The notes beneath the pieces were generated by a model. The model saw nothing but the letters and a program-made list of their open reading frames with translations. It did not search any database and was not told where the DNA came from. Below, piece after piece: positions 4,647-46,653 of a DNA stretch of 64,000 nt. Position 1 is the first letter of the stretch; each line of letters starts with the position of its first letter. The translations under genes and the position numbers were made by a program. The stretch covers positions 3,504 to 67,503 of the forward strand of contig JBAMLS010000001.1 in assembly GCA_039793445.1 (NCBI GenBank), written 5' to 3'. Source of the DNA: Minisyncoccales bacterium. Lineage in GTDB: Bacteria; Patescibacteriota; Minisyncoccia; Minisyncoccales; JBAMLS01.

Positions 4647-7600
4647 CTACAATTTTATTAACTCTTGCTTTTTAATTTTAAATGTTTTTCTTTCTTTATA
4701 TTCCTGTTGTTTACCAAAATTAAATTGATTAACTGGTCTTAAATATCCAACTACCCTTGTATAAACTTCGCAAGGCTGTTTAATTGTACATTTTGGACAA
4801 TAAAAATGTTCTCCTTCTAAATAACCATGTACAGGACAGATAGAAAAAGTAGGAGTTATCGTAATATAAGGTAATTTAAATGTTTCAAATACTCTTTTTA
4901 TAAGTTTTTTTACACCTTCGCCGTCTTGCATTCTTTCGCCTAAAAATATATGAAATACACTTCCACCTGTATATTTACAAGTTAAATCATCTTGTAAAGA
5001 TAAAGCTTCAAAAACATCGTCGGTATAATTTACCGGCAACTGAGTACTATTTGTATAATAAGGAACTTTTTTTGTGCCAGCAGTAATAATATCTGGATAT
5101 CTTTCTTTATCCTTTAAAGCCAATCTATATGCTGTAGATTCAGAAGGAGTTTGCTCTAAATTATAAAGATTTCCAGTTTCATTTTGATATTTTACTAATC
5201 TTTCTCTCATAAAATCCAAAATTTCAAGAGCAAAAGATTTTCCTTTTTTAGAACCAATATCTTCTCCCAAAAAGTTTAAAAGAGCTTCATTCATTCCTAC
5301 TAAACCAATTGTTGAAAAATGGTTTGCATAATATTGATCTCTCATTTTTTTAATATCAGATAAATAATATCTAGAATAAGGATAAAGTCCTTTTTCTATA
5401 TAATTTTCTAATGCTTTTCTTTTTATTTCTAAACTCTCTTTAGCTAAATCCATAATTTTACCCAATCTTTCAAAAAATTCTTTTTTTGTTTTAGACAAAT
5501 AGCCAATTCTTGGCATATTGATCGTGCAGACCCCCGTACTGCCGGTCTTCGCGCCCGCGCCGAATAATCCGCCACCGCCTCGATTGTAAAGTTCTTTAAG
5601 GTTGAGCCGAAGCCGACAGCACATGCTGCGGACATCTTCAGGCTTCATTTCTGAATTAATATAATTTGCGAAATAATTGATGCCATATTTTGCTGATGCT
5701 TCAAAAATTCCATCAAATGCAGATTCATCCCAAGGAAAATCTTTAGTGATATTTATCGTTGGAATGGGAAAAGTAAAAACTCTTCCTTTAGCATCGCCCT
5801 CTAAATAAACCTCATAAAGGGCTTTGTTAAAAATTTTCATTTCTTCTTCAAATTCTCCATAGGTTTCCTTTTGGGATTTGCCGCCAATAATCACTGGTAA
5901 TTTAGCAAAAACCGGTGATGGTTTTAAGTCTAAAGTAATGTTGGTAAAAGGCGTATTGTGAAAAACTAAGCATCCTGTTCCTCCAACGAAATTTTCTTGT
6001 GGGAGATCAACTGAAATATCATATTCAAATTCTTTCTCATAAGAAACCTCTTCTTTGTTAAGACAAACTCTGGCTTCAAAATCACCCACTCTGTATTGTT
6101 TTCTCCCATATTTGCTGTTTTCTTTAAAAACCCGGATAATATATTGATCTCTCCAATTTTGATTATTTTTGCTTACTTTTTCTGTGTAAACACTAAAACG
6201 AATATCTTGTTGAGATAAAAGCAAACTTAAACTTAGAGAGAGCTTTTTGGAAGTTGTAGAAAAATCCCAATGATTTTTGTATTCGGTCGCCTCTCCTTTT
6301 AATAATGTTTCAATAAATATTCTCTGAAGGTCCGGAAATAAATTAAAAATATACCAAGGAATAACTTTATTGAAAGATAAAATACCACCACTTAAACTAA
6401 CAATTTCTGCCAATAATCCTTTAGCGGCAATTTTGTAAACATTCTGAACTTTATTTCCCTTTTGAGAATAACCCTTGCTCTCTTCACTTTTCCCCAAACT
6501 CTTAAGAAATTTTAAGGTTTCTAAAATTTCTTCTTTATTCTTTCTTTCGGCCTGGGAGAGATAGGCCGAAACAGACATTCCTTTGTGTCCTTCTCCAACA
6601 TACCAAGCACAAAGTTTAACAAAATTCTCCAATAATTTACCCTTTAAAATTCTGGGGTACCAAATTTTACTGTTTTTTAACCTGAACTTGATATTTTGTT
6701 TCTGATCTCCAAACTTTCTCCAGATATCATATCTAATTGATTTTCTTTTTAACCAATCTTTCCAAATACTTTTATCTCTTATGCCAAAATCAATATAAAA
6801 AGGATGAATGGCTTGATATTCTTTCAAAATATTTTTCCTGATTTTGCTTAAAGTATGAGTAGGATTTATCTTAACAAAAACATTTTTTTGAAGCTGAGGA
6901 AATTCATCAATCAATTCAACTAAATCTAATCTTTCTTCTTTTTTCTCCTGTTCTATCTTCCCCAAGGCTAAGAAATGATTTTTTTCATTTAAGTGACGGT
7001 AATCAGAAGCTATTTCTATATCATTTGCCGAAATTGGTGTGGGATTAAATTGGCCATTAAATTTTTCAAAAGCAAAAAGAGAGTGAGCTGGTGAAACAAT
7101 AGCCTCTCCCCGATTAGTTCTAATTTTTAAAAATGAAGATTTTTGAGGAACTTTATGTCTAATAAATGCTTTTACTTTTGCCCAAACTGCTTTTCCTTCA
7201 GAATCAAAAGAAAGAGTATAATAATCATCAAAATTTTCTACGGCATAACTTTGAGGATACTGCTCAATAATCCGATGAGAATTTTCTTCAAACACTTTGT
7301 CAATCAATTTGCCAATTTCAACAAATTTTATTTTCCCTTTATGTTTTATTACAACCAACTCCTCCCAAGCTAAACTTTGAAAACCCACTCTCGTCGGAAT
7401 AGCCATATTAAATAAAAATTCTTGAAGGGCTTGTTTTACTTGTTGATAGTTTAAATTGTCATAGCGAACGAAAGGGGCTAAAAGAGTATCAAAATTTGAA
7501 AAAGCAATCGCTCCGGCTGCTTCGCCTTGAAGAGTATACATAAAATTCACCACTTGGCCTAAAGCTGATCTAAAATGTTTTGGTGGTTTAGATTCAACCT

Positions 7601-8195
7601 TACCGGGAACTCCTCCAAAACCTTTTACTAATAAATCATATAAATCCCAACCCATACAATAACACCCTAAAGTATCCAAATTATGAATATGAAAATCACC
7701 AGATTCATTTGCCTCTCTAATTTCTTTTGGATAAATTTTATTTAACCAATATTTTTTAACAATATAAGAAACACCGTAATGATTTAATCCTTGAAGAGAA
7801 AAAGACATATTAGCGTTTTCTTGAACTTCCCAATCTAACTTTTCTAAATATTGATCAATTCTATCTACCGCTTCTTCTGAAACTAAAATTGCCTCTCTTA
7901 TTTTTCTTCTTTGTTCTCTGTATAAAATAAAAGATTTAGCGGTTTCTACTAAACCCTCTGAAATAAGAACCTCTTCGATAATATCTTGAATTTCTTCTAC
8001 ATTAGGAATTTCCCCTTCTTTAAAACGACGATTTAACAAAGAAATAACTTTTTCTGTAATTTCTTTTGATTTTTCGCCATCTCCCTGATTTGCAGCGGTA
8101 AGAGCTTTAAAAATTGCTTGAGTAATTTTTTCTTTATCAAAATCTACAATAGTTCCATCCCTTTTAATAACTTTAGCGATTTTATTTTCAACCAT
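4647..8195 (-). CDS. nrdD: Anaerobic ribonucleoside-triphosphate reductase (class III) with N-terminal ATP-cone, interrupted by an intein
   Basis: ATP-cone N-terminus. Conserved finger loop SMCCRLRLNLKELYNRGGGGLFGAGAKTGSTGVCTINMPRIG. C-terminal Zn ribbon CPVHG...CPKC and glycyl-radical motif TRVVGYL. The ORF is 1182 aa; removing the 474-aa intein leaves about 708 aa, which is typical for NrdD. Confidence 0.9.
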   Translation of the reverse strand: MVENKIAKVIKRDGTIVDFDKEKITQAIFKALTAANQGDGEKSKEITEKVISLLNRRFKEGEIPNVEEIQDIIEEVLISEGLVETAKSFILYREQRRKIREAILVSEEAVDRIDQYLEKLDWEVQENANMSFSLQGLNHYGVSYIVKKYWLNKIYPKEIREANESGDFHIHNLDTLGCYCMGWDLYDLLVKGFGGVPGKVESKPPKHFRSALGQVVNFMYTLQGEAAGAIAFSNFDTLLAPFVRYDNLNYQQVKQALQEFLFNMAIPTRVGFQSLAWEELVVIKHKGKIKFVEIGKLIDKVFEENSHRIIEQYPQSYAVENFDDYYTLSFDSEGKAVWAKVKAFIRHKVPQKSSFLKIRTNRGEAIVSPAHSLFAFEKFNGQFNPTPISANDIEIASDYRHLNEKNHFLALGKIEQEKKEERLDLVELIDEFPQLQKNVFVKINPTHTLSKIRKNILKEYQAIHPFYIDFGIRDKSIWKDWLKRKSIRYDIWRKFGDQKQNIKFRLKNSKIWYPRILKGKLLENFVKLCAWYVGEGHKGMSVSAYLSQAERKNKEEILETLKFLKSLGKSEESKGYSQKGNKVQNVYKIAAKGLLAEIVSLSGGILSFNKVIPWYIFNLFPDLQRIFIETLLKGEATEYKNHWDFSTTSKKLSLSLSLLLSQQDIRFSVYTEKVSKNNQNWRDQYIIRVFKENSKYGRKQYRVGDFEARVCLNKEEVSYEKEFEYDISVDLPQENFVGGTGCLVFHNTPFTNITLDLKPSPVFAKLPVIIGGKSQKETYGEFEEEMKIFNKALYEVYLEGDAKGRVFTFPIPTINITKDFPWDESAFDGIFEASAKYGINYFANYINSEMKPEDVRSMCCRLRLNLKELYNRGGGGLFGAGAKTGSTGVCTINMPRIGYLSKTKKEFFERLGKIMDLAKESLEIKRKALENYIEKGLYPYSRYYLSDIKKMRDQYYANHFSTIGLVGMNEALLNFLGEDIGSKKGKSFALEILDFMRERLVKYQNETGNLYNLEQTPSESTAYRLALKDKERYPDIITAGTKKVPYYTNSTQLPVNYTDDVFEALSLQDDLTCKYTGGSVFHIFLGERMQDGEGVKKLIKRVFETFKLPYITITPTFSICPVHGYLEGEHFYCPKCTIKQPCEVYTRVVGYLRPVNQFNFGKQQEYKERKTFKIKKQELIKL
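5955..7376 (-). mobile_element. Intein (about 474 aa, large, with a putative LAGLIDADG-type homing endonuclease region) inside nrdD
   Basis: C-terminal splice block EYDISVDLPQENFVGGTGCLVFHN followed by +1 Thr (TPFTNITLD); I verified the codons cac aat acg on the reverse strand at 5952-5960. The N-terminus starts at Ser274 (SLAWEELVVIKHKG...). There is an internal LCAWYVGEGHKG segment resembling LAGLIDADG. Confidence 0.65.
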
Positions 8196-35523: not shown

Positions 35524-37191
35524 TTATTGGTTATTTTCAACTATTGTACCCCCTCGAATATCAATTGAATTATCATCTGGTAAGGTAGAATCTTTACCCT
35601 CTGCCTTTTCTTTTATAATTTCTCCTGTCACTGCGTCTATTCCAGAAAATTCTGATTCATTTAATAAATTAACAACCTTTCCAACCTGAGATTCCTGGGG
35701 AGTAAACTCTATCTGAAAAGCTAAGGTTAAAGGAGTAGAAGACTCAGATCCTACCCAAGGGGAAATGTCGCCTATATTCCAAATAATTTCTCTTGAATTT
35801 TGATCAAAAGTAAATTTTGCATCCTCTGGGAAAATTTTTCCCGTAAGTTGAATATATTCAGGTAAAGTTGTTTTTATCCTTGCGTTTTTAATCCCATTCC
35901 AGCCAGATTTTATCTGCCAAAGAACAGTATATTGCGTAGAAGAACCAATTTGAGGAGGAACTGGACCTTCATTATCAAAAATATCTTGTTGTCTTAAAAC
36001 TTTTTGAGAAAAGTTTATATAAGAATTTACACTATTTTGAAATGTTTTTTGAATATCACCAAAACTTATTTTTAAAGTTAAAAGAGGAGTGCCAGAATTT
36101 GTGCCAATAGCATCTATTCCTTTTAATTTTACCCAGAAATCAGCCTTTCCTTCTTCTAAAGCGTCCAAAAATCTTAATGAAGGCACATCTTTCCAATCCC
36201 ATAAAATAGTATTATCACCCTTTGCAAAAGATCCCTTGGGCACTAAGACAGTATCTAAATCGAAAAGGTCACCCTGAAGAGTTACTAATAAAAATTTCTT
36301 TTCTACTGGTTTTTGACTTAAATTTTTAAAAAATATTTCATAATGCAACAATTCTCCTGCTTGGGGTTTATAATCTGCTATACCATTAATTAAATAAGAA
36401 ATAAAAACAGGAGATTGAGCAATTTCTAATGACTGGGATGTTTCTTTTAAAACTATAAAATTATTATCTAAAATTATTCCCAATTTTGCTCTAAAAATTT
36501 GTTGGCTCTTTTCTTGACCTGAAATAATACCAGAAATCATAATTCTTCCCCCATTTAATTTTTTTAAAAGAGGAATTTGCCATTGATTTTGTTCTATACC
36601 CTGAGGCTTAGCTTTAATGAATTGAAAACCAGAAGGATAATCTATTTGAATAGCCAAATTTTCCAAATCTGCTTCACTATTTGAAAAATAATTTAAAGAA
36701 AAATTAATTTCTGTATTACTTTCACTTTTTAAAGGTAAATCAAATTCAAAAGTTATCGGAACAAACTGAATTTTTGTATTAAAAGAGGTATTTACTTCAT
36801 ATCTCGCCTTTAAATTTTTTGGTTGAAAACTCAAATATGCTTTTGCCACCAAATTATCTCCTTCTTTACCAAAAAGGATACCTTTGAAAGTAAAACTATT
36901 TTCTTGTCCTGGATAAATATCAGGTAAGGTTTTAATAATTCTCTTTTGACTTTCTTTTGAAATGGAATTTTGGGGAAATTCAAAAACTAATTCTGGTTTT
37001 TCAAGAGTAGTATTCCCATTATTTTTATAGCGAACAGTATATTCTATATTTTGCCCAGCCGAAATTGTATCTGGAGCTAAAATTTCTAATTTTAAAACTT
37101 CTTTAGAAAACTGCACTTTTTCAAAATATAGAAAAATAAAACCAACTAATAAAATTAATAAAAATAAAATTATCCCTAAAACCTTATTCAT
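35524..37191 (-). CDS. Cell-surface/secreted protein with repeated CARDB/DUF11-like beta-sandwich domains; N-terminal signal anchor
   Basis: N-terminal TM; LAPDTISAGQNIEYTVRYKNNGNTTLEKPELVFEFP-type repeat characteristic of CARDB/DUF11 domains; no catalytic motifs. Confidence 0.4.
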   Translation of the reverse strand: MNKVLGIILFLLILLVGFIFLYFEKVQFSKEVLKLEILAPDTISAGQNIEYTVRYKNNGNTTLEKPELVFEFPQNSISKESQKRIIKTLPDIYPGQENSFTFKGILFGKEGDNLVAKAYLSFQPKNLKARYEVNTSFNTKIQFVPITFEFDLPLKSESNTEINFSLNYFSNSEADLENLAIQIDYPSGFQFIKAKPQGIEQNQWQIPLLKKLNGGRIMISGIISGQEKSQQIFRAKLGIILDNNFIVLKETSQSLEIAQSPVFISYLINGIADYKPQAGELLHYEIFFKNLSQKPVEKKFLLVTLQGDLFDLDTVLVPKGSFAKGDNTILWDWKDVPSLRFLDALEEGKADFWVKLKGIDAIGTNSGTPLLTLKISFGDIQKTFQNSVNSYINFSQKVLRQQDIFDNEGPVPPQIGSSTQYTVLWQIKSGWNGIKNARIKTTLPEYIQLTGKIFPEDAKFTFDQNSREIIWNIGDISPWVGSESSTPLTLAFQIEFTPQESQVGKVVNLLNESEFSGIDAVTGEIIKEKAEGKDSTLPDDNSIDIRGGTIVENNQ

Positions 37192-37930: not shown

Positions 37931-40900
37931 TTAAAAAAAATCAAATTTTTTTACAGTAAAATATACTTTTTTTTCATCAAAAGAAATTTCCTTAAAAAGA
38001 TTTTTATCTTTTATAATAACCTCTCTCAAAACTTCTATTTTTGCTTCTTTTTTAATATTTTCTTCATTTTTTGAGATTATTGAAATAATTTTTGAATCGC
38101 CGCCATATTCTACTAAAATTTTATCTTTTGGTTTTAAATTCATTTCCTTTCTCTTAGATTGAATATTTCTTATAAATTCTCTTTTAATTCCCTCTTCTAT
38201 TAATTCTTCGGTTAAAGTAGTATCTAACTCTATTTTTTCTTTTAATGTTTTTTCGAAAACAATCTCTTTTACATTTACTTCTTCTTTAATTAAATCTAAT
38301 AATTTAGTATTTTTAATTTTAAAGAAATCTGGTTTTATTTTTAATACTCCAAGAGGTTGTCTAACTTTAATAGAATGTTTTGCCCTTTCAGCAAGAGCTA
38401 AAGAACAGATTTCACGTATTTTTTCCATCTCTTTTTCCAAATTTTTATCTATAAGTTCTTTATTAACTTTTGGAAAATCTTCCAAATGTACAGAGATTTT
38501 TGATTTATTTATATTATGTTTAAGTTCTTGATAAAAAAATTCGCTTTGAAATGGTAAAAAAGGAGCAGTAATTTTAGCTAAAGAAAATAATACAAAAGTT
38601 AAAACCTGAACGGTCATTTGGGATTCTTCATCTTGCTTTTGGTTTTGGAATATTTTTCTTGATCTTCTAATATACCACAATGATAAATCATTGATAATAA
38701 AATTTTCTATTTCTCTTGCGGCTTTATTTATCTCATATTTTTCTAAAGCATTTTGGGAAATTAAAATAGTAGAGTAAAATTTTGAAATTATCCATTTGTC
38801 TAAAATATTATTAGATTTTTTTACTAATTTTTGAATATTATTTGGATTAATAGTTTTTATTTTCCGAATATAAGTTTTTAAAAAAACAAAACAGTTCCAA
38901 AAAGTTAAGATAAATCTATTTTTAGTTTTTTCTATATCTTTTTCTGAAAAAAGTTTATAATCGCCAGGTTGATTAATTGTATAAAAATACCACCTTGTCG
39001 CATCAACTCCATATTTCTCAATAATATACCAAGGTGAAACAACATTTCCTTTTGATTTTGACATTTTTTCGCCTTTCTCATCTAAAACAATACCTAAAGA
39101 AATAACGTTTTTATAAGAAGGACCAAAACCCAATAAAGTTGAAATAGACAACAATGTATAAAACCAACCCCTTGTTTGATCAATACCTTCTGAAATAAAA
39201 TCAGCTGGAAATAGTTTTGGAGGTTTTAATTTTTGTTTTTCATTTATTTTATTTTGAAAGGAAGAAAAAGGCCAATGTTCTTGAGCAAATGGCATAGCTC
39301 CTGAATCAAACCAACAATCAATTACAAAAGACACCCTTTCCATTTTTTCTCCACATTTCGGGCAGTAAAATTTAATATTATCAACATAAGGTTTGTGTAA
39401 ATCTATTTCCCATTTTTTATTGTATGGTAAATCTTTAAATTCAATTTCTCGATATTCTCCGGTTTTTATTTTATTTCTCTCTATTTTTTCTTCAAAATCT
39501 TTTATATCATATCCTAAAACTGTTCCCTGAAACATTAAAATTGGTTTTGAATGACTTATAATTAAAATTGTTTTTCCAGTATATTTTTTATCTATTTCTT
39601 TAATAAAATTAAAAATTCTTTTTCTTACATCATTATAGTTTTCTCCCCCTTTGGGTTTTTTAAAAAATCTTTCTTTATAAGAAGACCAATAACCTTCAAA
39701 TTCAGAAATTAATTTTCCCTCAAAAATACCAGCTTTAATATCTCTTAATCTTTTATCAAAAATTGGCTCTATATTTAATTCTTTTCCTAAAATTTCTGCT
39801 GTTTCTCTTGTTCTTTCTAAATCAGAAGAAATTATAATATCAATATTTTCTTTCTTTAATTTTTTTGCTACCCTTTTTATTTCTTTTTTTCCTCTTTCTG
39901 TAAGAGAAGATAAAATTTTTTCAGGTTTACTCGAAATAATTATATTTCTCAAATTCATTTCAGATTCTCCATGCCTTAAAAATAAATATCTATTTTGAGA
40001 AAATTTTTGTTCTTTTAATTCATTAATAGAACCAATTATTTTTCTATAACCACATTTTTTACATTCCCAAATAGGTAATGGAGTACCCCAATATCTTTCT
40101 CTTGATAAAGACCAATCTTTAGCTTCTTTTAACCATTCTCCAAACCTTCCTGTTTTTATATGTTTTGGAATCCAATTAATTTTTCTATTGTTAGAAATTA
40201 AATCATTTTTCAAAGCTGACATTTTTATAAACCATCCATTTTTTGCAAAAAAAATTAAAGGAGTTTTACAACGCCAACAAAAAGGATATTCGTGTTCTAT
40301 TATTTTTTCTTTAAAAAGAAAATTTCTTTCTTTTAAATCTTTTATAATTAGAGGATCGGCATCCTTTACAAAAATACCAGCAAATTTTTCGACAAATAAT
40401 TTAAATTTTCCTTCCTCATTTACATTTAAAATTATAGGAAATTCTGGTAATTTTTTTTCTTTCAATTTTAAATTTTGATTTTCTATTAACTCCATATCTT
40501 CTGGTCCAAAAGCTGGAGCTATATGAACTAAACCAGTTCCCTCTTCTAAAGTAACAAAATCTGCTGGAAATAACTTATAAATATTACTTTGATATTCTTT
40601 TACAGGATAGGGTGGTTCATAAGAAATTAACGAAAATTTATTTATATCAATTTCTTCATAAGAATAATTTTCTAATCCTAAATCTTTTATTCTTTCTTTG
40701 GCTAATATTAAGTATTCATCATTTATCTTTACTTTTACATATTTAAATTTGGTGTTAAATGCAACTGCTACATTTCCAGGTAATGTCCAAGGGGTAGTTG
40801 TCCATATCAAAAGAGAGGTATTTTCAAATTCAGGATTCAAAATTTTAAATTTAACAAAAATAGAGGTTTCTTTTACTGTTTTATAACCCTGGGCAACTTC

Positions 40901-41458
40901 ATGAGAAGATAAAAAGGTACCACATCTTGGACAATAGGGATTTACTTTTAATCCTTCATATAAAAATCCCTTTTCATATATTTTCTTTAAAATAAACCAC
41001 ACAGTTTCAATATATTCTTTTGTATAAGTAATATAAGGATTTTTTAAACCAATCCAAAAACCTATTCTTTGCGTAAATTTTTCCCATTCTTTTTTATATT
41101 CCCAAACAGATTTTTTACAAAGTTCATTAAATTTTTCTATTCCAAATTTTTCAATCTCTTTTTTTGTGTTTATTTTTAATTTTTTTTCTATTTCAATTTC
41201 AACTGGTAAACCATGAGTATCCCAACCTGCTTTTCTTTGAACTTTAAAGCCCTGCATTGTTTTATAACGGCACACAAGATCTTTAAAGGCTCTACTTAAA
41301 AAATGATGAATACCAGGTTTTCCATTTGCTGTGGGTGGACCTTCATAAAAAACAAAATCTTTGTTTTTGTTTCTTTGAGAAATACTTTTTTCAAAAATAT
41401 TTTCTTTATTCCAAAAATTTAAAATTTTCTTTTCTATTTTTTGAATATTAAATTCCAT
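37931..41458 (-). CDS. ileS: Isoleucyl-tRNA synthetase (type-2/archaeal-eukaryote-like) carrying an inserted histidine-phosphatase-superfamily domain
   Basis: PPTANGKPGIHHFLSRAFKD (HIGH-type), KMSKSKGN, CP1 Zn ligands (CPRC...CWRC), WFDSG. The insert spans aa 485-670 and carries RHG and second-His motifs (see findings). Confidence 0.9.
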   Translation of the reverse strand: MEFNIQKIEKKILNFWNKENIFEKSISQRNKNKDFVFYEGPPTANGKPGIHHFLSRAFKDLVCRYKTMQGFKVQRKAGWDTHGLPVEIEIEKKLKINTKKEIEKFGIEKFNELCKKSVWEYKKEWEKFTQRIGFWIGLKNPYITYTKEYIETVWFILKKIYEKGFLYEGLKVNPYCPRCGTFLSSHEVAQGYKTVKETSIFVKFKILNPEFENTSLLIWTTTPWTLPGNVAVAFNTKFKYVKVKINDEYLILAKERIKDLGLENYSYEEIDINKFSLISYEPPYPVKEYQSNIYKLFPADFVTLEEGTGLVHIAPAFGPEDMELIENQNLKLKEKKLPEFPIILNVNEEGKFKLFVEKFAGIFVKDADPLIIKDLKERNFLFKEKIIEHEYPFCWRCKTPLIFFAKNGWFIKMSALKNDLISNNRKINWIPKHIKTGRFGEWLKEAKDWSLSRERYWGTPLPIWECKKCGYRKIIGSINELKEQKFSQNRYLFLRHGESEMNLRNIIISSKPEKILSSLTERGKKEIKRVAKKLKKENIDIIISSDLERTRETAEILGKELNIEPIFDKRLRDIKAGIFEGKLISEFEGYWSSYKERFFKKPKGGENYNDVRKRIFNFIKEIDKKYTGKTILIISHSKPILMFQGTVLGYDIKDFEEKIERNKIKTGEYREIEFKDLPYNKKWEIDLHKPYVDNIKFYCPKCGEKMERVSFVIDCWFDSGAMPFAQEHWPFSSFQNKINEKQKLKPPKLFPADFISEGIDQTRGWFYTLLSISTLLGFGPSYKNVISLGIVLDEKGEKMSKSKGNVVSPWYIIEKYGVDATRWYFYTINQPGDYKLFSEKDIEKTKNRFILTFWNCFVFLKTYIRKIKTINPNNIQKLVKKSNNILDKWIISKFYSTILISQNALEKYEINKAAREIENFIINDLSLWYIRRSRKIFQNQKQDEESQMTVQVLTFVLFSLAKITAPFLPFQSEFFYQELKHNINKSKISVHLEDFPKVNKELIDKNLEKEMEKIREICSLALAERAKHSIKVRQPLGVLKIKPDFFKIKNTKLLDLIKEEVNVKEIVFEKTLKEKIELDTTLTEELIEEGIKREFIRNIQSKRKEMNLKPKDKILVEYGGDSKIISIISKNEENIKKEAKIEVLREVIIKDKNLFKEISFDEKKVYFTVKKFDFF

Positions 41459-41514: not shown

Positions 41515-43287
41515 TTACATCTTTTCTAATACGGAAAGCCCTAATATTTTAAAAGAATTTTTAAGAATTTGGGCAATAGAAAAAGTGATTAACAATCTTA
41601 ATTTTCTTAAATCATCATTTTTCTCGTTTAAAATTGGGTATCTTTCATAAAATAAATTGAATTTTTGAGAAAGATTAAAAATATAATTACAAATAATATT
41701 TGGACTAAACTTTTCTTGAGATTTTAAAAGAATAGTTCTAAATTTACAAATTTCTTTTAAAAGATAAAACTCTTCTTCCGAAAGAAAATTTGGATTTTTA
41801 GATAAAATTTTTATTTTATTTATTCTATTTATTTTTGCTTTTTTTAAAACACTATTTGCTCTTACTAAAGTATATTGCAAATAAGGGCCTGAATTACCTT
41901 TTAAATTTAAACATTTTTTTAAATCAAAAATAATATTATTCTGGGGATTTTCCCTTAGATCATTATATTTTATAGCGCTAATAGCAATTTTTTTTGCAAC
42001 TTTTTCTTTTATTTTTTCAGAAGCATTTTTATATGCTTTTGATTTACTTAAAATTTTTTTTGCTTCTTGAATAGCTTTATTTAAAATTTTCTCTAAATGA
42101 ATTGTTGTTCCTTGACGAGTAGAAATTTTACCACCCTTAGAAAGATACAATCCATGAGATAGATGAAAGAAATAAGTTTCTTTTTTAGCATAAATTTTAT
42201 CCCATTTTAACATTTTTACTGCTTCAAATAATTGTTTCATATATAAAGATTGCTCTGCCCCAACCTCATATAAAATTATATCTGGTTTCCATTTTTTTAA
42301 TCTGTATTTTATTGCCGCTAAATCGCGCAAAAAATAAGTAGAAGTACCATCTGATTTTACTAAAATTGCTGGCGGAAACTCTTTTTCTTTAAATTTTATA
42401 ATTAAAGCGCCCTCGCTTTTTGAAAGAATGCCTTTTTCTTGAAGTTCTTTAATTATTTCTTTTGTAAATTTAAGATAAAAACTTTCTCCTATAGTAAAAT
42501 CAATTTTTATATCTAAAATTTTATATATTTTATTAAATTCTTTTAGGCTTAATTTTACAATTTCTCTCCAAATTTGCTTAATTTTTTCATCTCTCTTTTC
42601 TAGTTTGAAGAAATATTTTCTTCCTTCTTCTTTTATTTTAGGATTTTTTTGCGCTTCTTTATGAAATTTAACATAAAGTTTTTCTAACTCGTAAATAGTA
42701 TATTCTTTTATATTCTTTTTTCCCCCCCATTTTAAAATAGCAAAAATTAGATTTCCAAATTGAGTCCCCCAATCACCTAAGTGGTTATCACCAATAGATT
42801 TATATCCTAAAAATTTAAAAAGATTATATATAGCGTGACCAATAATTGTTGATCTTAAATGTCCAATTCCAAAAGATTTTGCAATATTTGGAGAAGAATA
42901 ATCAATAACTATCGTTTTTTTCTTATTTAATATTATTCGTGGATATCTTTCTTTTTCTTTAAAAATATTGTTTATTTCTTCTAAAAATACTTCTTTTTTG
43001 AGAAAAAAATTTAAAAAGCCTTGAGGAGATATTTCAATTTTCTCTAAAAAATTTATTTTTTTATTATTTAATTTTTCCAATATTAAATTTGCTAATCCAA
43101 TAGGTGGTTTTTGAGCAACTTTTGAAAGCAATATTGCTATATTACTAGTAAAATCACCATATTGAAAAAAAACGGGAAAATTTATATCAAAATTAGGAAT
43201 AAAAAAATCAGAAAGTATTTTTTCTTTTTGAAGCTCTAAAATAGATTCTTTAATTTTTTCTTTTAAAATTTGTCTTTGAACTTCCAT
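41515..43287 (-). CDS. argS: Arginyl-tRNA synthetase
   Basis: N-terminal add-1 domain; DYSSPNIAKSFGIGHLRSTIIG (HIGH-equivalent); C-terminal DALR anticodon-binding domain. Confidence 0.85.
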   Translation of the reverse strand: MEVQRQILKEKIKESILELQKEKILSDFFIPNFDINFPVFFQYGDFTSNIAILLSKVAQKPPIGLANLILEKLNNKKINFLEKIEISPQGFLNFFLKKEVFLEEINNIFKEKERYPRIILNKKKTIVIDYSSPNIAKSFGIGHLRSTIIGHAIYNLFKFLGYKSIGDNHLGDWGTQFGNLIFAILKWGGKKNIKEYTIYELEKLYVKFHKEAQKNPKIKEEGRKYFFKLEKRDEKIKQIWREIVKLSLKEFNKIYKILDIKIDFTIGESFYLKFTKEIIKELQEKGILSKSEGALIIKFKEKEFPPAILVKSDGTSTYFLRDLAAIKYRLKKWKPDIILYEVGAEQSLYMKQLFEAVKMLKWDKIYAKKETYFFHLSHGLYLSKGGKISTRQGTTIHLEKILNKAIQEAKKILSKSKAYKNASEKIKEKVAKKIAISAIKYNDLRENPQNNIIFDLKKCLNLKGNSGPYLQYTLVRANSVLKKAKINRINKIKILSKNPNFLSEEEFYLLKEICKFRTILLKSQEKFSPNIICNYIFNLSQKFNLFYERYPILNEKNDDLRKLRLLITFSIAQILKNSFKILGLSVLEKM

Positions 43288-43990: not shown

Positions 43991-44482
43991 TTGCTAAAAT
44001 TAAAGAATCAACCTATGAAAAAAAATATTAAGAGGGTTATTGCTCAAAACAAGAAAGCAGAGTTTAATTACGAAATTTTAGAGAAATATATAGCTGGAAT
44101 AGTATTAGAAGGTCACGAAGTAAAATCAATAAAAATTTTTGGTATAAACCTAAATGGTGTTTTTGCTATTGTTAAAAGGGGTGAAATTTTTTTAATAGGA
44201 TTAAATATTCCTCCTTATCAGCCTGGAAACTTAACTTTAAGATATAATCCAAAAAGAGATAGGAAATTGCTTTTAAAAAAAACTGAAATAAAAAATATAA
44301 TAAATAAATTAAATCAAAAAAGGTTGACGTTAATACCGCTTAGGGTGTATAATATAAAAGGTTTAATTAAGATCGAATTGGGTATAGCTAAACATAAAAA
44401 GAAGTTTGAAAAAAAAGAAAAAATAAAAGAAAGAGAAATTGACAGAGAAATAAAAAAAGAAATAAAAAATTATAATCTTTAG
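43991..44482 (+). CDS. smpB: SsrA-binding protein
   Basis: KKAEFNYEILEKYIAGIVLEGHEVKSIK and the conserved basic C-terminal tail. Confidence 0.9.
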   Translation: MLKLKNQPMKKNIKRVIAQNKKAEFNYEILEKYIAGIVLEGHEVKSIKIFGINLNGVFAIVKRGEIFLIGLNIPPYQPGNLTLRYNPKRDRKLLLKKTEIKNIINKLNQKRLTLIPLRVYNIKGLIKIELGIAKHKKKFEKKEKIKEREIDREIKKEIKNYNL

Positions 44483-44505: not shown

Positions 44506-44852
44506 GGGGGTGAAAATGGAATTGATGAAAGTCATAAAAAGCCAAAGCAGGCAGGTTGAGGGAGACCTCATAAAACATCTAAAAAGTGCAAACTTTACTT
44601 TTAAACCTGCTTTAGTTGCTGCATAAAACTAAAGCCATTCTTCTTCTTTTGTTCTCGACAAAGAAGAAAGGGTGTTATATTTTTCGAGATAGATAGTTAT
44701 TTTTCCTGGAATAACTATCGAAAAATAACAGGAAAAAAGTCTTATCGTTTTTGTCTACTTTTTAAAGATAAGACTTTAAAAGAAAGTAGACTATACCTGT
44801 AAAACTGCGAGGCTTTGACTCTCAGACGCGGGTTCAAATCCCACCACCTCCA
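44506..44852 (+). ncRNA. ssrA: Transfer-messenger RNA (tmRNA, ssrA)
   Basis: 5' GGGGGUG pairs with 3' CACCUCC, including a G3:U70 wobble (the tRNA-Ala identity element). T arm is gcggg-TTCAAAT-cccac; discriminator is A. Internal tag frame is gca aac ttt act ttt aaa cct gct tta gtt gct gca taa (ANFTFKPALVAA*, 44588-44626). Relatively GC-rich versus the surroundings; sits directly downstream of smpB. Confidence 0.75.
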
Positions 44853-44894
44853 CAATTAATATTAATATAAATTAATAAAAATATTTTTAAAAAA

Positions 44895-45571: not shown

Positions 45572-45919
45572 ATGACAAGAGTAAAAAGAGGAAAAATAAA
45601 AGTTAAAAAAAGAAAAAAATTATTAAAATTAACAAAGGGTTTTAAATGGGGTAGAAAATCAAAACCAAAAAGAGCAAAAGAGGCAATTTTAAAAGCCCTC
45701 ACTTATGCTTATAGGGACAGAAAAAAGAAAAAAAGCGAGTTTAGAAAACTTTGGCAAATTCAAATTGGAAATGCGGCAAAAGAAAGAGGATTAAGTTATA
45801 GTAAATTTATTCATTTATTGAAAGAAAAAAATATCGAATTAGATAGAAAAATATTAGCACAAATTGCTATAAATTACCCTGATATTTTTTCGAAAATTAT
45901 AGAAAAAGTAAAAAGTTAA
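45572..45919 (+). CDS. rplT: 50S ribosomal protein L20
   Basis: MTRVKRGKIKVKKRKKLLKLTKGFKWGRKS... is the canonical L20 N-terminus; 115 aa. Confidence 0.9.
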   Translation: MTRVKRGKIKVKKRKKLLKLTKGFKWGRKSKPKRAKEAILKALTYAYRDRKKKKSEFRKLWQIQIGNAAKERGLSYSKFIHLLKEKNIELDRKILAQIAINYPDIFSKIIEKVKS

Positions 45920-46653
45920 AAAATAACTTTTTTCTTTTTTATTTTTATTCCTTCTTTCTTTAAAAGAAAAATCTTCTTCTTTTCTCCTCTATTATATCCC
46001 CCTACTTTTCTATCTGATCTAATTACTCTATGACAAGGTATTCTAATATTCTCTTTTTTTGTTTTGTTTAAAATATTACCAACAGCCCTCCATGCTGTTG
46101 GTCTTTCGGCTAAAATTGCTACTTCTTTATAAGTTAAAAATTTTCCTTTTGGAATTTTCTTAACAAGGTTGTATACCTTTTCCTTAAAAGACACTTTATT
46201 TTTTAAACTATTTTCTTTTATTTTATTAATTAAAAAATCGTTTGCCTTTTTAAGAACACTTTTGGCGTTATCGTAAGTAAGAATTTTTATTGCCTCTTTA
46301 AATGGCGCCCACGTAAAACCTATATGTTCTTTTGAAATCGTAATTTCCTCTTGATTTGTACTTACTAAAAAAAATGTTACAAATTTTAAAACTCTTTTAC
46401 CCTGAGAATAAAAATAATACTTTATTGTTTCCTTAAAGCCATCGATGATTTTTATATCATTTAGTCCTGTTTCTTCGTTTATTTCTCTTTTTGCTGTTTC
46501 TATTAATTTTTCTCCTTTTTCAACATGACCTTTTGGAAAATCCCAATAATCTTTTTTTGTTCTACTGCCCTTTGGATAGTGTAATAATAAATATTGAATA
46601 TCGCCATTTGTTTTTCTAAAGACAATACCACCAGCTGATCTTTCAATTGGCAT
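45916..46653 (-). CDS. Fusion protein: N-terminal Nudix hydrolase (Ap4A-hydrolase-like) plus C-terminal methylated-DNA-protein-cysteine methyltransferase catalytic/DNA-binding domain
   Basis: Nudix box GHVEKGEKLIETAKREINEETGL, with SAGGIVFR...YLLL...WDFPKG context like small Ap4A hydrolases. C-terminal LTYKEVAILAERPTAWRAVGNILNKT...IPCHRVIRSDRKVGGY is the MGMT_C helix-turn-helix with the PCHRV active-site Cys retained. Confidence 0.65.
   Translation of the reverse strand: MPIERSAGGIVFRKTNGDIQYLLLHYPKGSRTKKDYWDFPKGHVEKGEKLIETAKREINEETGLNDIKIIDGFKETIKYYFYSQGKRVLKFVTFFLVSTNQEEITISKEHIGFTWAPFKEAIKILTYDNAKSVLKKANDFLINKIKENSLKNKVSFKEKVYNLVKKIPKGKFLTYKEVAILAERPTAWRAVGNILNKTKKENIRIPCHRVIRSDRKVGGYNRGEKKKIFLLKKEGIKIKKKKVIF

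Follow-up and report, generated by a model that had tools for sequence, protein, structure and literature searches.

Why should an enzyme that charges tRNA with isoleucine carry a phosphatase inside its own zinc knuckle? The question is raised by ileS, the gene for isoleucyl-tRNA synthetase (IleRS), on a 64,000-nucleotide stretch of DNA from a Minisyncoccales bacterium (GenBank assembly GCA_039793445.1, contig JBAMLS010000001.1, positions 3,504 to 67,503, forward strand), which as a whole is called the window here. A sequence-only reading of the window had proposed a genuine in-frame insertion of a histidine phosphatase domain between the two halves of the zinc knuckle of a type-2 IleS, and both a strong profile match and invariant catalytic residues bear this out. 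Across the candidate phyla radiation (CPR)/Patescibacteria, the module is found clade-wide as an accessory of class Ia synthetases, and the IleRS probably carries an extra chemical function beyond charging.

The ileS open reading frame (ORF) of 1175 amino acids (aa) was confirmed in the window, and its product is a type-2 enzyme (TIGR00392; IleRS2) by score, signature motifs, CP1 domain, and C-terminal DUF5915 domain. It reaches 874 bits with TIGR00392, the NCBIfam ileS equivalog (cut-off 621 bits), the match being interrupted at aa 486. Pfam recognizes tRNA-synt_1 in two stretches, of which aa 11-489 cover profile positions 1-271, followed by Anticodon_1 (aa 887-1038) and DUF5915 (aa 1076-1171). 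The zinc ligands of the CP core lie in CPRC (aa 176-179) and CWRC (aa 394-397), and the TTTPWTLPGN and GTGLVHIAP stretches of the CP1 editing domain are invariant. The synthetase motifs flanking the insert had been described as intact, which is correct for WFDSG (aa 716-720) and KMSKS (aa 798-802), whereas the supposed HIGH-type motif is in fact a swapped G-I-H-H (aa 49-52). The motifs for synthesis and for editing are thus retained in the host alongside the module. An AlphaFold2 (AF2) model of the full-length protein has a mean predicted local distance difference test score (pLDDT) of 88.2 and a predicted template modelling score (pTM) of 0.83, with low pLDDT at aa 736-739.

The swapped motif (as GIHH, GLHH, or GVHH) is found in 99 of 103 close relatives, and the hosts of the module include both GXHH and canonical HYGH enzymes. 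In type-2 IleRS, GXHH leads to mupirocin hyper-resistance (PMC10485003); among the exception models, the window IleS is most similar to MupA/MupB. A sister pair of relatives, the locus L084 (ileS 4779-7646) and the protein P0194, departs further and reads E-M-H-K-S for KMSKS and G-V-H-H for HxGH, signature motifs that diverge to an unusual extent, given that the enzyme is presumably essential.

The insert itself comprises about 200 residues at the tip of the CP3 zinc hairpin. Both CxxC pairs flanking it are assigned to the CP3 subdomain (nomenclature of PMC7191050): the first lies in WECKKCGY, which is present but occupies aa 464-471 rather than the 465-470 first given, and the second in FYCPKCGE, at aa 697-704 as reported. 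The gap between the pairs measures 229 residues in the window IleS versus about 36 in type-2 IleS enzymes lacking the insert, in line with the few dozen expected. The block had been drawn at aa 485-670 (39436-40000), which is close; its real extent is aa 488-687 (39398-39997), so that the first outline was slightly short on the C-terminal side. Exactly these residues (aa 488-687) are absent from the relatives L084, L085, L095, and L024-L080, and in the alignment of divergent loci the insert falls between "IGSxxEL" and "DLHRPYID".

A profile search identifies the insert as His_Phos_1 (PF00300; aa 492-657, E = 7.9e-36, 124 bits in context against a cut-off of 21.7), with the IleS model breaking off just ahead of it. 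The excised segment scores 128.6 bits (E = 3e-37) over profile positions 2-168 of 194. The two catalytic signatures named by the sequence-only reading are in place, namely LFLRHGESEMN (aa 492-502; H496 codon CAT at 39971-39973) and LIISHSKPIL (aa 632-641; H636 codon CAT at 39551-39553). The catalytic core is complete (R495-H496-G497, R549, E606, and H636) and aligns with its PspA counterparts, and R614 is a further invariant catalytic-site residue besides R549 and E606. Structure prediction agrees: the insert is modelled confidently both on its own (pLDDT 95.5, pTM 0.91) and within the full-length protein, where the pLDDT means of 10-residue blocks lie between 91 and 97, except for one block (88).

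Since the source is metagenome-assembled and the insert is one contiguous block, one may ask whether it is an artefact (a misassembly, an intein, or a mobile element) or a degenerate structural spacer. Pfam finds His_Phos_1 alone in the insert, without Hint/intein or transposase domains (terminal repeats were not scanned for), and neither type of domain was detected elsewhere in the window protein. The G+C content of the insert (0.22-0.25) is that of its flanks. The same architecture recurs in all of the best 120 matches from independent samples and assemblers, as well as in 22 species-representative genomes. Together, Pfam content, flank-like composition, and more than 100 independent assemblies rule out misassembly, intein, and mobile element, the last two as the sequence-only reading had maintained, and a degenerate spacer would hardly combine invariant catalytic residues with a fold predicted at very high confidence. 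We give this whole group of explanations next to no credence.

The best 120 matches were drawn from a collection of 5.8 billion proteins and come from many independent samples; every one of them combines PF00133 with PF00300 (55-100% identity, 1096-1221 aa). Their source names are Nealsonbacteria, Pacebacteria, Paceibacterota, or Patescibacteria, the protein usually being called "class I tRNA ligase family protein", and the window protein's own 90% cluster has one member labelled Minisyncoccia. R495, H496, R549, R572, E606, R614, and H636 are invariant in 103 of 103 aligned relatives (55-67% identity). Over these relatives the mean identity to the window is 50% for the module and 54% for the anticodon domain; the module is thus conserved to the same degree as the anticodon-binding domain.

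The picture extends to more distant genomes. In a scan of species-representative genomes, at least 23 loci match across the insert (22 of them scorable for catalytic residues) and at least 57 loci are without it. The insert-bearing loci span 29-63% G+C and belong to Paceibacteria, Wolfebacteria, Yanofskybacteria, Spechtbacterales, Peregrinibacteria, and others; the insert-less loci among those listed are mainly from Firmicutes, plus one Patescibacteria metagenome-assembled genome. R495, H496, R549, E606, R614, and H636 are invariant in the 22 divergent genomes (36-51% identity), and of 305 domain copies, about 295 have an intact catalytic set, each tandem copy among them. The insert is thus no one-off but common in CPR bacteria together with its catalytic residues, and it occurs in valyl-tRNA synthetase (ValRS) as well. 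Since not one of the relatives examined departs from the catalytic residues, the module is not a lineage-specific linker, a reading that is thereby ruled out. As far as can be judged from residues and fold, the module is very probably an active phosphatase. All four CP3 zinc cysteines are gone in seven lineages (L004, L010, L014, L015, L018, L021, and L022); as these keep every phosphatase catalytic residue, the zinc knuckle seems dispensable once the module is present.

What kind of phosphatase is it? Foldseek with the model of the module returns 310 matches in the PDB at E <= 0.001, and the best 50 are all family members (template modelling, TM, scores of 0.6-0.73). They are led by PspA, the mycobacterial glucosyl-3-phosphoglycerate phosphatase (GpgP), and PhoE (TM about 0.7), while the others include TIGAR, an Entamoeba phosphoserine phosphatase, a riboflavin-pathway phosphatase, CobC, and mutases. 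A sequence search of the PDB likewise places Hydrogenobacter PspA first (2e-20) and PhoE second (4e-13). The module is a genuine member of branch 1 of the histidine phosphatase superfamily, of the small-substrate type.

Several specific identities were tried and rejected. The equivalog for PspA phosphoserine phosphatase (NF045917) gives 86.8 and 90.8 bits where 350 are required, and that for CobC alpha-ribazole phosphatase (TIGR03162) 80.8 and 85.8 bits versus 162.9. Phosphoglycerate mutase fares no better, be it the archaeal type (NF038349, 96.9-101.9 bits versus 225) or TIGR01258 (29.5 bits versus 81.7), and GpmB scores far under its cut-off. For the phosphohistidine phosphatase SixA (TIGR00249), 28.9 bits face a cut-off of 74.5, with the N-terminal part alone being matched. 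As all these NCBIfam equivalog cut-offs (PspA, CobC, dPGM, GpmB, and SixA) are missed widely, the module stands outside every characterised orthologous group.

Turning to its partners, an IleS core is present in 238 of 242 long module-bearing proteins (BLAST against the IleS core). Those without it are a ValS with four tandem copies (P0122), an ArgS and a TsaC/Sua5 (threonylcarbamoyl-AMP synthase) each with a C-terminal copy, and, among the short proteins, P0182 and P0206. About 70 of the top 120 ValS clusters bear the module; they are named Gracilibacteria or Peregrinibacteria and have one to several copies per protein, up to four in tandem. In ValS the insertion uses the homologous CP3 loop (profile position about 265-275), between WWGHxIPVWYDE and LRQDEDTLDTWFSSAL. 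Module-bearing ValS proteins, too, go by the NCBI name "class I tRNA ligase family protein". The partners are biased to class Ia synthetases, and from sequence comparison the recruitment to the ValRS CP3 loop and that to a second IleS site (P0148, where a second phosphatase copy stands ahead of the anticodon-binding domain, at window aa of about 860-880) appear to have been independent. Other domains enter IleS as well. A third loop, after WFESGSMPYA, houses a P-loop (GACGAGKT) kinase-like domain in P0248 and, beside the phosphatase, a GNAT domain in P0207, which also has an in-frame REP-associated/IS200-like Y1 transposase domain within its CP1 region; in window numbering, this loop lies at aa 730-748 or so.

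The fusion with TsaC is rare but conserved (four clusters, 52-65% identity), and its neighbours are the CCA-adding enzyme, TGT, a queuosine-salvage gene, and TruD. In the CPR, TsaC/Sua5 has further fusion partners, most commonly the DNA-binding domain of O6-methylguanine-DNA methyltransferase (MGMT) but also TruB, 2H/cyclic phosphodiesterase, methylpurine-DNA glycosylase, GNAT, NUDIX, and histidine phosphatase. Such variety is unusual for an enzyme of the t6A pathway, and because TsaC is fused to so many unrelated small enzymes, the lineage can be called generally fusion-prone.

The strongest evidence for a functional link is a separate phosphatase gene adjoining ileS. An exhaustive search with the insert alone returned 78 representative clusters at E <= 1e-30, consisting of IleS-embedded copies and free-standing proteins (187-206 aa, up to 52% identity). 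For 8 of 10 distinct free-standing proteins looked up, the gene lies directly upstream of ileS and is co-oriented with it, at a distance of -13 to about +50 nt; of the remaining two, one is at a contig end and one follows argS without an ileS behind it. On long contigs the order is smpB, AA_kinase, argS, phosphatase, ileS, (x), recO, and a DUF11-like gene, which is the window's own synteny with the phosphatase set free between argS and ileS (L084-L091 and L094). The three complete ileS genes downstream of it (951-962 aa) precisely lack the insert. Even at 36% identity, the free-standing gene still adjoins ileS. No related phosphatase ORF was found near ileS at any of 57 insert-less control loci (flanks fetched, up to 6 kb per side), and a search of the window for a second phosphatase paralogue was likewise negative.

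To compare the embedded, adjacent, and absent states, the IleS core was used for a bootstrapped tree from which the insert had been removed. Two "adjacent" enzymes and one "absent" enzyme each stand beside a different embedded enzyme (support 100%, 98%, and 99.5%), the adjacent forms are never monophyletic, and the module has been cleanly lost in L024. The free-standing proteins reach 67% identity to embedded domains of the window's clade, versus 35% to the domain in the sister IleS of their own partner. These values come from BLAST rankings; the neighbour-joining tree of the phosphatase domain is star-like and gives no order of events. From the IleS-core tree and the BLAST rankings it follows that the arrangement has switched repeatedly and that the module is an exchangeable unit that stays with ileS.

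A sceptic could still see a hitch-hiker here: a housekeeping enzyme encoded in the argS-ileS operon, such as the cell's metal-independent phosphoserine phosphatase or its sugar/glycerate-phosphate phosphatase, captured by permissive loops and linked to IleRS by co-expression alone. The nearest relatives in sequence and structure are indeed phosphoserine phosphatases and broad phosphatases, and the eclectic TsaC fusions (MGMT, TruB, 2H phosphoesterase, DNA glycosylase, GNAT, and NUDIX), the IleS variants with GNAT, P-loop, and even Y1-transposase domains, and a NUDIX-MGMT fusion inside the window all suit this explanation. So does the clean loss in L024, and CP3 seems tolerant of change because its topology varies among IleRSs (PMC7191050). 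Against capture by chance stands the bias of the partners: 238 of 242 hosts are IleS and the remainder ValS, ArgS, or TsaC, in contrast to the wide choice of TsaC itself. Moreover, internal insertion, although rare, took place in two paralogous synthetases at their homologous loop and again at a second IleS site, the free-standing gene keeps to ileS despite its divergence, and the housekeeping equivalogs (PspA, CobC, dPGM, and GpmB) were all missed. We regard the hitch-hiker as unlikely, though worth keeping in mind, and think it reasonably likely that the module is functionally coupled to the synthetase.

If it is coupled, the module might act on the synthetase itself. HipA-type toxin kinases inhibit GltX or TrpS by phosphorylation, and branch 1 of the superfamily includes the protein phosphatases SixA, PGAM5, and Sts-1. 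The module could thus reverse an inhibitory phosphorylation, or its phospho-histidine could sense a glycolytic metabolite and tune charging. Its attachment to, or encoding beside, the putative target would fit such a phospho-switch, as would the P-loop kinase-like domain that one variant carries in the same protein. However, there is no protein phosphatase among the 50 best structural neighbours, the SixA model is missed by a wide margin (29 of 74.5 bits), TsaC and ArgS as partners clash with a single-target model, and neither a kinase partner nor a conserved phospho-acceptor site came to light. The idea of a protein phosphatase specific to IleRS was downgraded because ValS, ArgS, and TsaC appeared among the partners and protein phosphatases did not appear among the structural neighbours; a switch of this kind is very unlikely.

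Our own choice of substrate is a tentative one, namely a tRNA 3' end bearing a phosphate. It is made because the partners (IleRS, ValRS, ArgRS, and TsaC) all belong to tRNA metabolism, the module's anchor adjoins the pocket for the CCA end, and IleRS and ValRS already shuttle the CCA end of their tRNA between two active sites, for synthesis and for editing, which lie about 30 Å apart. The neighbours of the TsaC fusion (CCA-adding enzyme, TGT, and TruD) and the P-loop kinase-like domain of one IleS variant count in its favour as well. As for the anchor, the CP2-CP3 linker of the window IleS (AKDWSLSRERYWG, aa 446-458) lies about 30 residues N-terminal of the module and is homologous to yeast IleRS 453-ARDWNVSRNRYWG-465. 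In yeast IleRS, the linker ARDWNVSRNRYWG lines the pocket for the CCA end of the tRNA (PMC7955072).

By the chemistry of the family, H496 would attack a terminal phosphoryl group that R495, R549, and H636 keep in place, E606 would protonate the leaving group, and the phospho-histidine intermediate would then be hydrolysed. The module may in this way serve the synthetase as an accessory hydrolytic site resembling an editing domain, in cis or in trans. The putative substrate would be a tRNA whose 3'-terminal nucleotide carries a 2'- or 3'-phosphate or a pyrophosphate, and phosphate removal would restore a chargeable CCA end beside the aminoacylation pocket. Of the three substrates suggested by the sequence-only reading, the tRNA 3'-end phosphate is viable. 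Diadenosine tetraphosphate (Ap4A) and aminoacyl-adenylate are chemically unlikely, because what this fold passes on to histidine is a terminal phosphoryl group, which neither compound has at the relevant bond.

Several points weigh against a tRNA end as substrate. To our knowledge, no member of His_Phos_1 acts on RNA ends, and the 50 best Foldseek neighbours are all small-molecule enzymes. A conserved basic character is absent: the isoelectric point of the module follows that of its host protein, and 23% of the copies are acidic. TsaC itself does not bind tRNA, and the free-standing copy is without an obvious tRNA-binding platform. Beside the TsaC fusion, the CCA-adding enzyme comes with an HD domain of its own, and in E. 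coli it is this domain that supplies tRNA-end phosphatase activity. Finally, repairing tRNA-Ile and tRNA-Val alone would bring no rescue of translation after a general attack on tRNA.

A rival explanation, by-product clearance, supposes that the module hydrolyses inorganic pyrophosphate (PPi), thereby pulling amino-acid activation forward, or 5'-AMP, in either case being brought to a major source by tethering or co-expression: IleRS, ValRS, ArgRS, and TsaC all make an acyl-adenylate and PPi from ATP, and AMP later on. The free-standing and TsaC-fused forms are easier to explain in this way than by a tRNA substrate. Tandem copies would increase local capacity, and the fold is of the small-substrate type, with the neighbours CobC and the riboflavin-pathway phosphatase acting on ribose-5-phosphate-type compounds. 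There is a precedent in the fusion of pyrophosphatase with ATP sulfurylase in some eukaryotes. Yet we know of no pyrophosphatase in His_Phos_1 (branch 1), AMP hydrolysis would be wasteful for purine-salvaging organisms, and only two or three of about 20 synthetases carry the module. Tethering would give little advantage because PPi diffuses freely in a tiny cell. An ordinary inorganic pyrophosphatase is reported in at least one Gracilibacterium genome (PMC6851277), which also weakens the idea of a replacement for a Ppa missing from the CPR. All in all, we consider by-product clearance improbable.

A bolder version of the tRNA-end proposal is that the IleRS and ValRS of the CPR possess a third active site for the CCA end, a phosphate-removing site for "end-proofreading" or repair. 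We think this doubtful. Such a site would clear 2'/3'-phosphates or pyrophosphates left by ribotoxins or by toxSAS-type tRNA pyrophosphorylation, and the synthetases would double as enzymes of tRNA repair or immunity, with the trans version next to ileS in other lineages.

The coordinates of the locus and of other features in the window are collected in Table 1. Among the latter, a 245-aa protein joins an N-terminal NUDIX domain to the MGMT DNA-binding domain, the same MGMT domain that is most often fused to TsaC in related Patescibacteria; in these genomes, small domains for repair and house-cleaning appear to be reassorted freely. A full-length transfer-messenger RNA (tmRNA), not reported by ARAGORN, lies directly downstream of smpB. 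Lastly, a 555-aa protein whose N-terminal segment resembles a membrane anchor, and which matches DUF11/DUF7619 weakly, is also retained by relatives that share the synteny (L085), again downstream of recO.

Table 1. Features of the ileS locus and of the rest of the window, in window positions; residue numbers are those of the ileS product
Feature	Positions	Strand	Basis
ileS, type-2 isoleucyl-tRNA synthetase with embedded phosphatase	37931-41458	-	1175-aa ORF; NCBIfam, Pfam, AF2
aa 1-459, first half of Rossmann fold, CP core, CP1, CP2, CP2-CP3 linker	40082-41458	-	Motif positions; Pfam tRNA-synt_1
G-I-H-H, swapped class I signature motif	41303-41314	-	
aa 460-487, N-terminal arm of CP3 zinc hairpin (C466, C469; strand and short helix)	39998-40081	-	Codons; alignment to insert-less IleS through "IGSxxEL"
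C466 and C469 codons	40061-40063 and 40052-40054	-	
aa 488-687, insert proper, His_Phos_1 module (PspA/PhoE/CobC-like)	39398-39997	-	Pfam; boundaries versus insert-less relatives; AF2; Foldseek
R495-H496 of the RHG motif, predicted phosphoryl-accepting histidine	39971-39976	-	Codon check and invariance
H636, predicted second catalytic histidine	39551-39553	-	Codon check and invariance
aa 688-712, C-terminal arm of CP3 zinc hairpin (HKPYVD motif; C699, C702)	39323-39397	-	Alignment to insert-less "DLHRPYID...CxxC"
Segment between CP3 C-terminal arm and anticodon-binding domain, with loop of about aa 730-748	38909-39322	-	Motif check
aa 851-1175, anticodon-binding and type-2 C-terminal domains (DUF5915)	37931-38908	-	Pfam
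argS, directly upstream of ileS	41515-43287	-	Pfam
recO, downstream synteny marker common to the separate-phosphatase loci L084, L085, and L095	37184-37921	-	Pfam
555-aa protein	35524-37191	-	
smpB	43991-44482	+	
tmRNA	44506-44855	+	Rfam, 135 bits
NUDIX-MGMT protein	45916-46653	-	

The wider interest lies in the host. Synthetases are heavily studied, and their accessory domains (for editing, tRNA binding, and signalling) have more than once led to new biology. For IleRS and ValRS, a phosphatase that is conserved and apparently active within the catalytic body would imply a phosphate-removal step tied to tRNA charging, spanning a large part of the CPR and with a free-standing version retained beside ileS. 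Current models of aminoacylation hold no such step, for which tRNA-end repair, product clearance, and regulation are the candidates. That these can be tested with recombinant protein matters, as most of these organisms are uncultivated. In practical terms, annotation pipelines demote these essential enzymes to a generic "class I tRNA ligase family protein", and in metabolic reconstructions the embedded domain may be taken for a phosphoglycerate mutase or a phosphoserine phosphatase.

How does the module compare with known systems? The claim that the architecture is undescribed holds as far as 8 million full texts, in which no description was found, and recent papers on IleRS evolution reach: a 2026 survey of how IleRS domains evolved nowhere contains the words phosphatase, CP3, or CPR, and module-bearing proteins are public under generic names. 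The window host is of the type of the mupirocin hyper-resistant IleRS2 (swapped GXHH), with a DUF5915 C-terminus, and for the IleRS2 enzymes examined in that work a CP3 insert is not reported (PMC10485003).

Among synthetase accessories, the closest analogy is with the CP1 editing domain and the trans-editing factors (YbaK/ProX, AlaX, and archaeal ThrRS-ed), a comparison that rests on established knowledge of aminoacyl-tRNA synthetases. There, too, a hydrolytic domain is either embedded or separate, often encoded by an adjacent gene, and the embedded and free-standing forms of the module would seem to parallel cis editing domains and trans-editing factors. Both CP1 and the module are inserted in the Rossmann fold, at the CP1 and CP3 points, respectively; editing by CP1 is ester hydrolysis, whereas the fold of the module is one for phosphoryl transfer to histidine. 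A curated precedent for an IleRS with an extra catalytic domain is NF040702 (ileS_w_GNAT), from which the module differs in domain type; the window protein scores 298 bits versus 1999 with this model, through the IleS core alone.

Among phosphatases, the module is matched best by Hydrogenobacter thermophilus PspA (4IJ5/4IJ6) and Geobacillus PhoE (1H2E/1EBB), both in sequence (E = 2e-20 and 4e-13) and in structure (Foldseek E = 1e-14, TM about 0.7, 26-29% identity). Like the module, they have the R-H...R...E...H catalytic set in a compact body of about 200 aa, but they are free-standing metabolic enzymes, whereas the module is embedded in a synthetase or encoded next to one. The RNase H/acid phosphatase of the Rv2228c type (NF005567) joins a CobC-like His_Phos_1 domain to a nucleic-acid enzyme, and in NCBIfam its model is one of those that match the module best (84-88 bits, under the 326-bit cut-off); there, the fusion with RNase H is terminal, while the module is an internal insertion. 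Each of the two components of the window enzyme belongs to a known family, and synthetases are known to accrete domains. What is notable is the combination: a catalytic phosphatase, an internal position in CP3, recurrence in two paralogous synthetases, and existence both in cis and in trans.

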